64,000 bases of DNA from an uncultured delta proteobacterium. Lineage in GTDB: Bacteria; Myxococcota_A; UBA9160; SMWR01. Under the pieces are notes generated by a model. The model saw nothing but the letters and a program-made list of their open reading frames with translations. It was not told where the DNA came from and ran no database searches. The stretch is taken from the NCBI GenBank assembly GCA_963832165.1, contig CAWHTE010000003.1:192001-256000 (forward strand). The letters are read 5' to 3'. The translations under genes were made by a program, and so were the position numbers. Below are positions 35,517 through 46,522 of this stretch, one piece after another; within the stretch, counting starts at the first letter, position 1, and every line of letters begins with the position of its first letter.

Positions 35517-37097
35517 GCGCCCCGCCTGCTGGTCTTCGCTCGCCGTCGGGCTCGCTGCGCGAAACTTGCGCCCGGATCCTCGTCGTCGAAGACCACAAGC
35601 CGCTGCGGCGCGGAATGGCGATGGCGCTGCGCGAGGCCTGGGGGCACGCGGACGAGGAGGAGTCGGGCGATGCCGCCGTGCGGCGGCTCTCGGATCCGGA
35701 TCGCGAGCCCTACGACGTCGTCGTGACCGACCTGCGGCTGCCGGGCGCTGATGGACTCGCGGTGCTCGAGGCCGCGCGCGCGCGCGACGAGCGCACGCGC
35801 GTGCTCGTGCTGACCGCGTTCGGCACCGTCGATACCGCTGTGAACGCGATGCGCGCGGGCGCGTTCGACTTCCTCGAGAAGCCGCTCGATCTCGACCAGC
35901 TCGATCTGCGCGTCGGGCGCGCGCTCGAGCACCGGCGGCTGCTCGCCGAGGTGACCGAGCTGCGCGCGGAGCGGGCGGAGCGGCGCACCGCAGCCGCGAT
36001 CGTGGCCGAGAGCCCCTCGATGCGCGCCGCGGTCGAGCTCGCGCGCCGCGTTGCTCCGAAGCGCTCGAACGTGCTCCTGACCGGAGAGACGGGCACGGGC
36101 AAGGAGCTGTTCGCGGGGCTGATCCACGAGGCGTCGCCGCGCGGAAGCGGACCGCTCGTGAAGGTGAACTGTGCGGCGCTGCCCGAGACGCTGCTCGAGT
36201 CGGAGCTGTTCGGACACGAGCGCGGCTCGTTCACGGGCGCGGACCGCCGGCGGATCGGTCGTTTCGAGGAGGCGAGCGGCGGCACGCTCTTCCTCGACGA
36301 GGTGGGCGAGATGTCGCCCGCGATCCAGGCCAAGCTGTTGCGCGTGCTGCAGGACCAGGAGTTCCAGCGCGTCGGCGGAACCCAGACGCTGCGCACCGAT
36401 TCGCGCCTCGTCGCCGCGACCAACGTCGATCTCGAGAGCGAGGTGCGGCGCGGCGCCTTTCGCGAGGACCTCTACTTCCGACTCGATGTGATCCGGATCC
36501 ATCTGCCGCCGCTGCGAGAGCGGCCCGAGGACGTGATCGAGCTCGCCCGGCGCTTCCAGAGCGAGTTCACGGCCGGGCCCGGCACTCCGCACGGGTTCGA
36601 CTCCGATGCGTTGGAGCGACTGCGCGGCGCACCGCTGGCCCGGGAACGTGCGCGAGCTGCGCAACGCGATCGAGCGCGCGCAGCTGCTCGCTCCGGGACC
36701 GCGCATCCGCGCCCGCGACCTCGACCTCACCGAGCGCGATCTGCTCGACGACCCGGAGTCGTGGCGGCCCGAGCTGCCCCCGCCGGGGTGGAGCCTGCGC
36801 GATTGGGAGCGCGCGCTGGTCGAAGAGGCGCTCCAGCGCACGGGATTCGTGCAGAAGGATGCCTGCGAGCTGCTCGGGATCAGCCGCCGCAAGCTCAACT
36901 ACATGGTCCGCTCGATGGGCATCACGCACACCCGGTGGCGAAAAAACCACCCCGATCGCATGGCTGAGGACTGCAAGGAGGGCGACTCGGAAGAGTCGCC
37001 CGAACGCGCAGCGAGCCGCGCGTGGCCTGAGGATCGCAAGGAGGCCGCCTCGGCAGAGGCGGCTGAACGCGCAGCGAGCCGAAGGCGAGCGAAGTAG
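35513..37097 (+). CDS. Sigma54-dependent response regulator, +1 frameshift near 36626; repeat-derived N- and C-terminal extensions
   Basis: GTGA overlap; REC (VEDH, TDLRLP, KP), [14 protein letters not shown], then [12 protein letters not shown] and HTH in next frame. Confidence 0.9.
35534..35569 (-). repeat. Dispersed hairpin repeat copy 1
   Basis: Reverse complement GCAAGTTTCGCGCAGCGAGCCCGACGGCGAGCGAAG, near-identical to 46488-46522. Confidence 0.85.
36964..37094 (+). repeat. Dispersed hairpin repeat, two tandem units (63-bp period)
   Basis: GCAAGGAG-[GGCGACTC GGAA GAGTCGCC]-CGAACGCGCAGCGAGCC and GCAAGGAG-[GCCGCCTC GGCA GAGGCGGC]-TGAACGCGCAGCGAGCCGAAGGCGAGCGAAG. Confidence 0.85.
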
Positions 37098-37212
37098 GAG
37101 CCGGGACTTGATTCCGCCAGCGGTTGATTGAACCCTAGCGGCCCATTCGGTTTCCGACCTCGGCTCGGGAGACCCCTGCTTCCGGCCCCGGGGCCCTACA
37201 TGGAGCGTCCAA

Positions 37213-39660
37213 ATGCGTGTCCGCTCGTTCTGGATCGTCGCCCTGTGCGGCGTCGTCTTGCTGGCCGGCTGTCGCTCGAACGAGCAGGCCATCGCCGAGC
37301 ATCTCAAGCGCGGCGAGGACTACCAGAAGGAGAAGAAGTACGCCGAGGCGGTCATCGAGTACAAGAACGTGCTCCAGATCGACCCGAACCACGCGAACGC
37401 CCACTACGAGCTGGCCAAGTCCTTCCTCCAGCTCGGCCAGGCGAAGGAGGGCTTCTGGGAGCTGCGCGAGACCGTGCGCCTCGATCCGAAGAATCACGAG
37501 GCCGCGGTGCAATTCGGGCAGATCTCGATCTACGCGGGCGAGCTCGAGGAGGCGCTCAAGCGCGCCGACGCGGTGATCGCCGACGATCCGAACAACGAGA
37601 AGGCCTGGCTCGTGAAGGGGCAGGCGCACGATGGGCTCAAGCAGCCGGCCGAGGCGCTCGCGGCGTTCCAGAAGGCGGCCGAGGTCGCGCCGACGAACGA
37701 AGCGGCGCTGCTCGTGCTCGCGAACTATCACCGGCGCATGGGCGATCGCGCGACGGCGGGCGCCCAGTTCGAGGCTGCGGCCAAGAACGTTCCGACGATG
37801 CAGACGTACCTCGCGCTCGCGTCGTTCTACTCCGAAGACCGCGACCGCGACGCCGACTCCGAGGCCGCCTATCGCAAGGCGCTCGAGCTCGCCAAGCCCG
37901 AGGAGGTCGCGCGCCCGTACGCGCTGCTCGGGAACTTCCTGGTCGCGCGCGACCGATTCGATGACGGCGTGGCGGTGCTCGAGAAGGGCATCGAGACGTC
38001 TTCGGATCCGCTCGACCTGATCTACATGCTCGCGCGCATGTACTACCAGAAGGGCGACAAGGCGAAGGCCGACGAGCTGATGGTGCGCGCGACCGAGAAG
38101 TCGCCCGACAATCCGCGCCCGTTCCTGGTGCTGTCGAGCTACAAGGGCCGCCAGGGCGACCTCGAGGGCGCGCTCGCTGCCGCCGAGAAGGCGATCGAGC
38201 TCGATCCGAAGGATCAGAACGCACAGCTGCGCAAGTCGGAGGTGCTGCTCGAGCTCGGCTACCGGGACCAGACGCCGGATCGGATCGCCGAGGGCCGCAA
38301 GCTCGTCGAAGCGGTGCTCGCGGCCGAGCCGTCGAACCCGGGCGGGCTGTTCGTGAAGGCCAAGATGGACATGGCCGACAACAAGTTCGACGACGCCATC
38401 CAGTCGCTGCGCTCCGCGATCGACGTGCGTCCCGACTGGGCCGAGGCCCACTTCCTGCTCGGCACCGCGCTGCGGCTCACGGGTCAGCGCTCGGCAGCGC
38501 GCACCGAGCTCGCACGCGCGCTCGAGATCGATTCTTCGCTGCTCGAGGCGCGCCGCGTCCTGGCCGAGGTGCACTCGGATCTCGGCGAGCACGAGTACGC
38601 CGTGGAGGAAGGGAAGCGCTATCTGCAGCACAAGCCCGATGCGCACGAAACGCGCGTGCGCGTGGCGCAGAGCCTCGTGCTGCTCGGGCGCCTCGACGAG
38701 GCGCTCGTAGAGGTGAACGCGATTCCCGAGGACGCGCGCGACGAGTCGGTCGACTTCGCGCTCGGCCGCATCTACACCGCGAAGGGCGAGAACGACAAGG
38801 CGCGCGCACTGCTGCTCAAGGCGCTCGAGAAGCGGCCCAATCACCCCGACATCCTGCGCGGTCTGCTCCAGATCGAAGAGAAGATGGGCAAGACCGAAGA
38901 GTCGCTCGCGCGGATCCAGAAGGCCGTGACCGACAAGCCCGACGACCCGAAGCTGCAGCAGCTCGCGGGCGTCGTGGCGCTGGCGCAGGGACGCGTCGAG
39001 GACGCGACGAAGGCCCTCGAGCGCGCGATCGAGATCGCTCCCGACGACATGTCGAGCTATCAGCAGCTCGCCGATCTGTACGTGCGCACGGGGCGCACCT
39101 CGCAGACGATCGAGGTCTACGAGAAGGCGCTCGAGCGCAAGCCCGAGCAGCCGCGCATCCACCACTTCCTGGGTGTGCTCTACGAGTACGGCGGAAAGCC
39201 CGAGCTCGCGGTCAAGCACTACGAGGAGGCGATCAAGCAGTCGCCCGATCTCGCGGAGTCGAAGAACAACCTCGCCTATCTCTACGCCGAGTCGGGCAAG
39301 AACCTCGACCGCGCGCTCGATCTCGCTCAGGACGCGAAGGCGCTCTTGCCGGACGACCCCAACACGGCCGACACGCTGGGCTGGGTGCTGTTCCGGCGCG
39401 GCGTGCCCTCGGCCGCGATCGGTTACCTCAAGGAGGCCGAAGCGGGCGTGAAGCCCGAAGACGCCACGCTCGGGATCATCCGGCACCACCTCGCGCAGGC
39501 CTACGAGGCGAGCGGCGACAAGGAGAACGCGCGGACCACGCTCGATCGCGCGATCGCCGCACAGGAGTCGTTCGTAGAGGCGCAGAAGGCCCGCGGGGTG
39601 CCTGTGGGCGCCGACCCGTCCTGGTACCAGGACGCGCGCAAGATGCGCGAGCGCCTCTAG
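37213..39660 (+). CDS. Large TPR-repeat lipoprotein (PrsT-like)
   Basis: Lipobox LAGC; AVIEYKNVLQIDP; many TPRs; NNLAYL..DTLGW C-terminal TPRs. Confidence 0.9.
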   Translation: MRVRSFWIVALCGVVLLAGCRSNEQAIAEHLKRGEDYQKEKKYAEAVIEYKNVLQIDPNHANAHYELAKSFLQLGQAKEGFWELRETVRLDPKNHEAAVQFGQISIYAGELEEALKRADAVIADDPNNEKAWLVKGQAHDGLKQPAEALAAFQKAAEVAPTNEAALLVLANYHRRMGDRATAGAQFEAAAKNVPTMQTYLALASFYSEDRDRDADSEAAYRKALELAKPEEVARPYALLGNFLVARDRFDDGVAVLEKGIETSSDPLDLIYMLARMYYQKGDKAKADELMVRATEKSPDNPRPFLVLSSYKGRQGDLEGALAAAEKAIELDPKDQNAQLRKSEVLLELGYRDQTPDRIAEGRKLVEAVLAAEPSNPGGLFVKAKMDMADNKFDDAIQSLRSAIDVRPDWAEAHFLLGTALRLTGQRSAARTELARALEIDSSLLEARRVLAEVHSDLGEHEYAVEEGKRYLQHKPDAHETRVRVAQSLVLLGRLDEALVEVNAIPEDARDESVDFALGRIYTAKGENDKARALLLKALEKRPNHPDILRGLLQIEEKMGKTEESLARIQKAVTDKPDDPKLQQLAGVVALAQGRVEDATKALERAIEIAPDDMSSYQQLADLYVRTGRTSQTIEVYEKALERKPEQPRIHHFLGVLYEYGGKPELAVKHYEEAIKQSPDLAESKNNLAYLYAESGKNLDRALDLAQDAKALLPDDPNTADTLGWVLFRRGVPSAAIGYLKEAEAGVKPEDATLGIIRHHLAQAYEASGDKENARTTLDRAIAAQESFVEAQKARGVPVGADPSWYQDARKMRERL

Positions 39661-46482: not shown

Positions 46483-46487
46483 TCGAA

Positions 46488-46522
46488 GCAAGTTTCGCGC
46501 AGCGAGCCGAAGGCGAGCGAAG
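46488..46522 (+). repeat. Dispersed hairpin repeat copy, intergenic after hslU
   Basis: GCAAGTTTCGCGCAGCGAGCCGAAGGCGAGCGAAG. Confidence 0.85.

Follow-up and report, generated by a model that had tools for sequence, protein, structure and literature searches.

REP and REPIN sequences are short palindromic repeats of high copy number, with a fixed 5' tag and a patchy distribution, and in these respects the family described here, which we call GCAAG after its own tag, resembles them (PMC3733652, PMC8266576, PMC3116915; all sources are cited from excerpts). The E. coli enzyme TnpA-REP requires that the first stem of the REP contain an AA-GC mismatch (PMC8266576), and the same mismatch occurs in the first hairpin of the GCAAG element, which reads GC-AA-G...C-GC-GC. 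REPs of the CGTC type likewise have no dedicated transposase (PMC3733652, PMC8266576, PMC3116915), and the excerpted report on BRE elements gives their enzyme as not known (PMC3110155). Stable DNA mini-hairpins are formed by GNA triloops only, are much weaker as RNA and are poorly bound by SSB; examples are known from the G4 origin and from ssiA of RSF1010 (PMC13037366). The n'-pas (ssiA) site of ColE1 is exposed past the origin (PMC3167613).

The window analysed here is a stretch of 64,000 nucleotides (69% GC) from the source genome G000 (5.5 Mb, 89% complete); genes were called with a simple purpose-made caller, and G001-G005 were compared as congeners. A preliminary description had placed five hairpin units at four sites in the window, and all lie where it put them, at 35534-35569 on the minus strand and from 36973, 37036, 41180 and 46488 on the plus strand. 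The proposed common sequence, GCAAG...CGCGCAGCGAG, is present in the five units and the CGAGCGAAG continuation in four, but the mini-hairpin ascribed to all is incomplete in the 36973 unit. The three arm pairs of the variable first hairpin and the GCC-GAA-GGC/GGC-GAA-GCC swap in the mini-hairpin were recovered as described; the account of the loops fails for the 35534 unit, which carries the 8-nt spacer CCCGACGG and no GNA triloop.

The short-form unit at 35526..35569 (minus strand) consists of GCAAG-TTT, a core with this 8-nt spacer and the tail ACCAGCAG. It is an in-frame antisense insertion just after the first codons of a sigma-54 response regulator gene starting at 35513, which exceeds its orthologs in G001, G002 and G005 by 42 bp and that in G004 by 45 bp; in all four orthologs the start codon overlaps the upstream stop. 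Directly 3' of the regulator stop codon lies an arm-type unit (36973..37018, plus strand; arm GGGCGACTC/GAGTCGCCC) that ends after CGCGCAGCGAGCCG, inside the central mini-hairpin. This unit is missing from G001, G004 and G005, and related modules occupy the same junction in G002. A second arm-type unit (37036..37094, plus strand; arm GCCGCCTC/GAGGCGGC) has a complete core. Approximately 14 nt of flank occur twice, once before each of the two units, which suggests a local tandem duplication. The orphan 3' tail module of an older long-form copy (GCGAGCGCGAAGGCCCGG, 41155..41176, plus strand) precedes a long-form unit of about 97 nt (41180..41276, plus strand), which lies between a LysM gene and dprA and is composed of GCAAG, an arm, the core and a 3' tail hairpin. 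Its arm is a GA-flanked GGCCGAC/GTCGGCC, its core stem has the swapped GGC-GAA-GCC form, and the junction is empty in G001, G003, G004 and G005. The last unit, again a short form (46488..46530, plus strand; GCAAG-TTT, core, tail TCCATAAG), lies between hslU and a response regulator gene and is not present in G001, G003 or G004.

Short forms of the element measure 42-47 nt and longer forms up to about 100 nt. The 5' end is sharp, with GCAAG upstream in 133/146 copies of G000 and 116/140 copies of other genomes, and the 3' end is loose. Neither terminal inverted repeats, the ends of the short form being non-complementary, nor a fixed target duplication were found; long forms show a partial GC/GCA repeat at their ends. 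The conserved 25-nt core, exemplified by 46498..46522 (plus strand), can be read as a single hairpin made of a C-G pair, a GNA/GNA internal loop, GC/GC, putative tandem G.A pairs, a 3-bp stem and a GNA loop. Loops are of GNA type in 134/146 copies, and the spacer is 7 nt long in 132 of 138. A longer stem encloses the core in three of 134 copies (3.0 by chance).

Arms of at least 5 nt pair into a stem in 52/58 cases in G000 (2.4 after shuffling) and in 94/111 in other genomes (16.5). The compensatory changes noted in the preliminary description are real: among 22 copies of one arm length, selected with a pattern in which the core is fixed, pairing reaches 96.2%, and 7 pairs and 40 cells are changed on both sides. 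Percentage paired, cell count and covariation score were reached in 0/500 shuffles and the pair count in 5/500. A palindromic stem with covariation, by which REPs are recognized, is thus also a feature of this family. Palindromic arms can nevertheless arise through template-switch correction, with no need for selection. Standard DNA folding gives unremarkable stability (z from -1.1 to +0.2), with parameters that may omit GNA or sheared G.A terms. No convincing covariation emerged when the tail and the flank downstream of it were compared as guide and target, and no split elements, with orphan 5' and 3' halves up to 3.5 kb apart and a gene in the loop, were found.

The 11-mer taken alone is a weak signal in 69%-GC DNA: it has 35 matches in the window at one mismatch (24.75 expected) and 339 genome-wide (178 simulated), and its exact match at 7156 is a chance one. 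The compound pattern occurs 138 times in G000 and 0 times in one genome-length order-5 Markov simulation, and the reversed pattern is absent from 61/61 genomes. The proposal of an unannotated, non-autonomous family dispersed genome-wide is borne out by these additional copies and by the covariation; a whole-window Rfam search at the gathering threshold gave no relevant match, nor did a search of 35300-46700 at E<=10. A literature search, with most subscription papers outside it, retrieved no description of a GCAAG hairpin family.

The family is present in 39/61 genomes of the order, with a patchy distribution. Copy number ranges from 1 to 138 inside the genus, G001 having one copy only. Genomes G003, G004, G005, G009 and G089 carry about 66-130 copies each, the G009 count being 1 with the strict pattern and 86 with a relaxed one. 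In a class sample of 151 genomes, 49 are copy-rich (at least 10 copies, some with 212-321) and 102 are not; in one family the element occurs in 1/49 genomes. The core is nearly invariant throughout the class.

Judged by genome comparison, the family is mobile, because the copies in the window, like those lying in frame within radA, birA, nuoC and atpG, have no counterpart in most orthologs from congeners. An alignable ortholog was available for 32 sites of G000; two were left out as false or doubtful matches, and at the remaining 30 a copy occurs in no G001 or G005 ortholog and in G004 at four. G004 has insertions of its own; in one example (L066) 42 bp are added cleanly and in frame, and another is a tandem of 3 x 42 bp at xerC/hslV. 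No RNA run was listed among the sequencing runs containing this DNA, and among the matches listed for four DNA runs no contig bridged an element site, and hence no strain-level empty allele was seen.

We observed three features beyond the preliminary description, namely in-frame coding insertions, a sense bias and self-nesting. Coding sequences hold 53/150 copies, 50 of them in sense orientation. Conserved protein genes with in-frame insertions are the four named above and a phosphatidylcholine-synthase-like gene, and clean coding sites show a net gain of 36-51 bases, always a multiple of three. Between tandem genes, 48/66 copies are in sense orientation. The sense share is similar for lagging-strand (27/34) and leading-strand genes (51/64), and the ratio of leading to lagging orientation is 58:40 (p=0.085); orientation tracks transcription, not replication. 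Clusters consist of direct copies only. In self-nested copies, an element is inserted in the hairpin loop of an older one, the net gain being 41-45 bases and in 8/19 cases not a multiple of three, and the junctions point to target bases being lost rather than duplicated. The nesting pattern sought short-form inserts at loop positions only, and some compound copies may share one event.

Our tentative preference, held with slightly less than even confidence, is for a selfish non-coding mobile repeat that is likely transferred in folded, single-stranded form by a trans-acting nuclease, probably one of the HUH type. Such a nuclease would cut at the fixed GCAAG 5' end, and the cut strand would be joined into exposed single-stranded DNA. 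The purine-rich strand, with its GNA triloops and tandem G.A, would be the working strand; its targets would be hairpin tips and, in transcribed genes, the non-template strand, and each junction would cost a few target bases. Selection would retain only in-frame events in coding sequences, and the enzyme may arrive in bursts with transient mobile elements and then be lost.

None of the enzymes sought, Y1, Y2, RT, IS110, GIY-YIG or Ku, tracks the family strictly, and since six enzyme families were tried, partial associations fall under a multiple-testing caveat. A copy lies within the fetched flank of 3/37 Y1 loci and 0/15 Y2 loci of G000 and its relatives, approximately as expected from density. 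At least 10 copies of the element occur in 13/15 carriers of a multicopy Y1 family and in 14/46 non-carriers. This table overstates the link, because G009 is undercounted, because relatives do not count as independent cases, and because only 0-1 element copies accompany the 6 and 11 Y1 genes of that family in G015 and G055. Precise Y1 strand transfer, moreover, would not give a variable loss of target bases. The single fixed end and the tandem copies might suggest a non-autonomous rolling-circle element of IS91 type, for which a tetranucleotide target would also be expected, but no Y2 gene was found in G000, G004, G009, G027 or G032. The family core is absent from the four loci examined of the five IS110 genes in G000. 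GIY-YIG matches, found in 31/32 genomes and mostly single within a long frame, would fit UvrC. A scan of the G000 gene set for paralogs and HUH motifs returned only the Y1 family, with a caller that misses genes of atypical composition.

A weaker contender, which we consider rather doubtful, dispenses with a dedicated enzyme: a nuclease- and SSB-resistant hairpin resembling a single-strand initiation (ssi) or primosome assembly signal would be copied, and patched into gaps and hairpin-tip breaks, by host replication-restart or gap repair. The failure of the six families to follow the element and the variable nested junctions fit such a route, as do the occurrences of the core elsewhere. The core is found singly in plasmids of Rhizobiaceae and Collinsella and in 10 viral contigs, two of which have a CRESS-type origin stem-loop downstream of it, and a transposase-family match was obtained at 14/80 metagenome loci carrying it. 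BLAST of the elements returned nothing from phages and only short core matches from plasmids. In ColE1, the sole hairpin of the core's build is found at position 1332, some 140 nt beyond an origin-like run at 1191, probably in the n'-pas region; the G4 and RSF1010 mini-hairpins mentioned above are further parallels. However, the fixed GCAAG 5' end across the class suggests sequence-specific cutting, and universal proteins leave unexplained why one genus spans 1 to 138 copies or why a family has the element in a single genome of 49. Ku co-occurs with the element (30/49 copy-rich genomes versus 22/102 others), yet is missing from 19 copy-rich genomes, some with 212-321 copies.

The core also adjoins DDE and IS110 transposase genes and is therefore not HUH-specific; at 10/80 metagenome loci it stands behind a TGTC/CGTC-type tag, and the GTAG REPs flanking the RAYT of G000 have tips of the same build. 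Being common to REP tips, transposase neighbourhoods, plasmids and viruses, it is a general single-strand DNA module. A broader proposal, unlikely and somewhat more so than the last, is that the 25-base hairpin is a priming or restart signal that the host reads and that plasmids, viruses, insertion sequences and REPs have in common. The GCAAG family would be that signal turned minimal parasite with no dedicated transposase; it would copy itself via host replication-restart into hairpin tips and into DNA exposed by transcription, and would add peptides to core proteins. If true, this would also account for CGTC REPs, BREs and similar orphan repeats.

Selection for a host benefit, such as mRNA stability, translation coupling or DNA uptake, appears improbable. 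The near-invariant core could be taken as a sign of a function, as could the G-rich tail, which is often immediately before a start codon: 54/150 copies are within 60 nt of a same-strand start (2.8% of random positions), an excess that arises partly from short intergenic spaces. Against this, sites are mostly unshared among congeners, G001 manages with one copy, insertions occupy each of the three sense frames (28/19/3), and self-nesting has no obvious host value. Still less probable is an RNA intermediate with reverse transcription, which would explain the transcription-linked sense bias and the loose 3' end: no RT (PF00078) was found in G000 (89% complete), triloops and 7-nt spacers predominate, and it is the sense strand that bears the DNA-type GNA hairpins, while cDNA would carry the opposite one. 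Equally improbable, and largely refuted, is the preliminary reading of a REP family spread by RAYT, for which the AA-GC mismatch, the shared tip build and one intact RAYT-like gene in G000 speak, but the GTAG/CGTC tag is missing, none of 150 copies has an inverted partner (27 pairs among 105 control REPs of G000), six lie between convergent genes (64/105 REPs), none of the 12 Y1 genes of G000 has a neighbouring copy, the sole RAYT-like gene is flanked by the GTAG family, found in 2/61 genomes, and at E<=1 Y1 is absent altogether from four of five copy-rich relatives, G004, G005 (99% complete), G009 and G089 (100%), G003 having one 15.8-bit match.

Whatever its route, the GCAAG family bears on how the smallest repeats with no cognate transposase (CGTC REPs, BRE, SDR, RPE) spread. 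Its fixed 5' end, structurally defined core, self-nested junctions and transcription-linked polarity provide unusually good handles for study, and G000 also contains a true RAYT/REP system that serves as an internal control. The element adds peptides of 12-35 residues to essential proteins, e.g., RadA, BirA, NuoC and ATP synthase gamma; entry of repeats into proteins was already known, and the host is uncultured. Unlike REPs and REPINs, the family has a GCAAG tag, no inverted pairs and no flanked RAYT, is strand-polar and lies in genes in one third of cases. It differs from DDE-mobilised MITEs in having no terminal inverted repeats and in nested junctions that point to target bases being lost, not duplicated. 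The hairpins of the G4 origin, RSF1010 ssiA and ColE1 n'-pas, which act on single-stranded DNA, share with the core a GNA mini-hairpin, a likeness of build and position only, but in the excerpted sources are single-copy replication signals, not dispersed (PMC13037366, PMC3167613, PMC5778457). Compared by description only, cyanobacterial SDRs are also very small, tandem-forming and probably mobile, with no enzyme known in the excerpts, but measure about 20 bp, and SDR5 inserts precisely in HIP1 (PMC2884548, PMC4390886). RPEs likewise enter conserved protein genes in frame and add short peptides, but are stem-loops of 105-146 bp with terminal inverted repeats (PMC2229807, PMC3733652), whereas the GCAAG element is about 45 bp long, has no such repeats and is strand-polar. 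BREs are longer (about 90 bp) and contain GGGCCGCCCC hairpins as well as a T-tract further upstream (PMC3110155); the T-tract and GC hairpins are absent from GCAAG-family flanks, as judged without alignment to BRE, and, in the excerpts, BRE sequences have no tandem-G.A core and the text does not use the term in-frame (PMC3110155). BREs nonetheless share, as read by eye, a GCAAG-[variable stem-loop]-CGCAGCG module with the family, and similarly form direct tandems, sometimes lie inside ORFs and are not co-oriented with replication (PMC3110155).

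The family consists of a fixed GCAAG, a variable arm, a conserved 25-nt hairpin core and a variable tail; its short form spans ~42-47 bases, and longer forms reach ~100. Re-reading of the sequence agrees with the preliminary description on five units in the window and on their positions, apart from two minor points: truncation of the 36973 unit and a spacer of 8 nt in the 35534 unit. Taken by itself, the 11-mer is a weak marker in this GC-rich DNA. The genome-wide search that had been proposed returned the compound pattern 138 times in the 5.54-Mb source genome (G000) versus 0 in one order-5 Markov simulation. 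No match to the family was obtained in an Rfam search.

Some arms have only three bases, mostly TTT, and the others are palindromes. Among arms of at least 5 nt, 52 of 58 in G000 form a closed stem, versus 2.4 expected from shuffles; for copies of other genomes the figures are 94 of 111 and 16.5. Of 146 copies compared at the central mini-hairpin, 101 have C-G and 41 have G-C as the outer variable pair, and 134 carry a GNA loop. The compensatory changes initially read from the window were borne out in 22 copies sharing one arm length: 96.2% of cells are paired, and 7 pairs and 40 cells are changed on both sides. None of 500 shuffles matched the percentage paired, the cell count or the covariation score, 5 matched the pair count, and slid controls lowered pairing to 25-49%. 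Most of the signal comes from the arm, the core contributing one well-supported swapped pair. The core may adopt a single hairpin that combines GNA/GNA and tandem G.A motifs. The genome has 155 instances of this build versus 3 and 2 for permuted controls, a count dominated by the family's own copies, and the G.A pairs are therefore still putative. Standard DNA folding revealed no unusual stability of the element. GNA triloops are the class of DNA mini-hairpins, which are far weaker as RNA and show poor SSB binding (PMC13037366).

Comparison with related genomes identifies the family as a real mobile element. The minus-strand copy at 35526..35569 is inserted antisense and in frame where a sigma-54 regulator begins, adds 42-45 bp, and is missing in four congeners. 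The plus-strand copies at 36973 and 37036, 41180 and 46488 are missing in the alignable orthologs of G001, G003, G004 and G005; G002 has related modules at the 36973/37036 site. Among 32 alignable G000 sites, 2 were set aside because the match was false or doubtful; at the 30 kept, 2 of them poorly aligned, a copy is present in no G001 or G005 ortholog and in G004 at 4. Clean single-unit coding differences measure 36-51 bp, are multiples of three and are most commonly 42 or 45 bp. Genes with an insert include radA, birA and nuoC; the insert in atpG is larger and compound. G004 has insertions of its own. For instance, three 42-bp short-form copies form a perfect tandem between xerC and hslV (L011:7705-7830), and the window has no copy there (~44570-44590). 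A search pattern directed at hairpin loops detected 19 copies that sit inside older ones and add a net 41-45 bases (9 of 42, 6 of 44, 2 of 45, and 1 each of 41 and 43); the loop of the older copy is not kept. The inserted unit would thus be up to ~47 bases long, with a few target bases lost, and insertions in genes would be filtered to multiples of three. As the nearest relative is 83-88% identical, junctions are not resolvable to the base, and public sequencing runs yielded no strain allele bridging an element site. The family is very probably selfish mobile DNA. Separately, the sigma-54 response regulator gene (35513-36967, plus strand) is frameshifted by one base at ~36620-36630 when compared with its orthologs in four congeners; this is either a genuine lesion or an error of assembly.

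The REP-like identity initially proposed did not hold against a control within the same genome. G000 carries a true GTAG REP family, with 105 intact copies, around an intact-looking RAYT-like gene flanked by GTAG REPs (contig C4, 533399-536015). These REPs form 27 inverted neighbour pairs, lie between convergent genes in 64 copies and are strand-neutral (15:14). In contrast, among 150 family copies scored against our own gene calls, not one has a neighbour in inverted orientation within 150 bp, and 53 lie inside called genes, with 50 in sense orientation; of the tandem-intergenic copies, 48 are sense and 18 antisense. The sense bias is alike on lagging-strand (27/34) and leading-strand (51/64) genes, and orientation versus replichore is 58:40 (p=0.085; replichore from skew, 98 of 160 loci). 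Distribution differs as well: GTAG REPs are present only in G000 and G002 among 61 genomes of the order, whereas the strict family pattern occurs in 39, and six congeners contain it 1, 77, 118, 130, 66 and 35 times. Membership of the family in the REPs was rejected on these contrasts of polarity, inverted pairs and distribution. Within the class, 70 of 151 genomes contain the relaxed core (maximum 600 copies); outside it, 3 of 203 phylum genomes do. Among the 80 genome matches listed, out of at least that many, 60 bear the label Myxococcota, Myxococcales, delta-proteobacteria or a named myxobacterium, 15 are labelled 'Spirochaetales' in their records and 5 are generic.

Movement by a HUH-type enzyme acting in trans is plausible, if tentative. 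A multicopy Y1 family co-occurs with the repeats (13/15 versus 14/46), a comparison affected by undercounting with the strict pattern in some genomes (G009, 1 versus 86 relaxed). Contrary to the expectation of a RAYT/TnpA gene flanked by copies, none of the 12 Y1 genes in G000 has a family copy nearby. Y1 is absent from G004, G005, G009 and G089, G003 has only a sub-threshold match, and copy-rich near-complete genomes are among those without Y1. Neither G000 nor G004 has Y2, no RT was found, and IS110 loci show no link with family copies. Eleven G000 loci (e.g., L001, L003-L008) encode a diverged multicopy Y1-like family of ~230 aa with a WFDGW motif, a weak Pfam match and no NCBIfam match. 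Frequently flanked by inverted CTTTGAGGG...CCCTCAAAG, it resembles Y1 elements with flanking TIRs; 15 of 61 genomes hold 3-19 copies each. Two IS110 copies of G000 (C1:234286-235523 and one on C11) are identical, measure 1238 bp, have clean ends and could serve to define the IS110 target.

Copying by the host, without a dedicated enzyme, is unlikely but gains weight from the occurrence of the core in viruses, plasmids and transposase loci; the core is a general single-strand module, and this generality weakens the HUH-specific argument. Ten viral contigs each have one isolated copy of it, in several cases near terminase-like genes (labels from ORF reading; one related locus Pfam-confirmed). 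In two CRESS-like contigs (L242, L243), the hairpin shares a strand with the TATATTAC origin stem-loop, lies ~130-150 nt upstream of it and is a candidate complementary-strand signal. One tailed phage (L060/L061) and a Collinsella plasmid feature the whole GCAAG-arm-core layout in dense clusters within single non-coding regions, with a compensated outer stem in the plasmid (NZ_OY725718, ~3850-4130). Rhizobiaceae plasmids have one core copy each, and the sole hairpin of this build in ColE1 lies ~140 nt past an origin-like run. Of 80 metagenome loci chosen by a variant core, 28 have the core at the tip of a longer stem (3.0 expected), 10 have it after a tag of TGTC/CGTC type, and 14 contain a transposase-family match (84 of 135 candidate ORFs scanned); the hairpins adjoin HTH_Tnp_1, IstB/IstA, IS1595, IS110 and rve transposase genes. 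Ku co-occurs with the family (30/49 copy-rich versus 22/102 other genomes), yet 19 genomes rich in copies lack it. GIY-YIG, rejected as a candidate enzyme, does not discriminate between genomes.

No description of the family appeared among the papers listed by literature searches. The family is similar to REPs in substrate build without being one: the stem tips of the G000 GTAG REPs are GNA/tandem-G.A hairpins, a build common to the family core, and the family's first hairpin has an AA-GC mismatch resembling the one in E. coli REP (PMC8266576). Like RPEs it enters proteins, and it has a module in common with BREs, but it belongs to neither.
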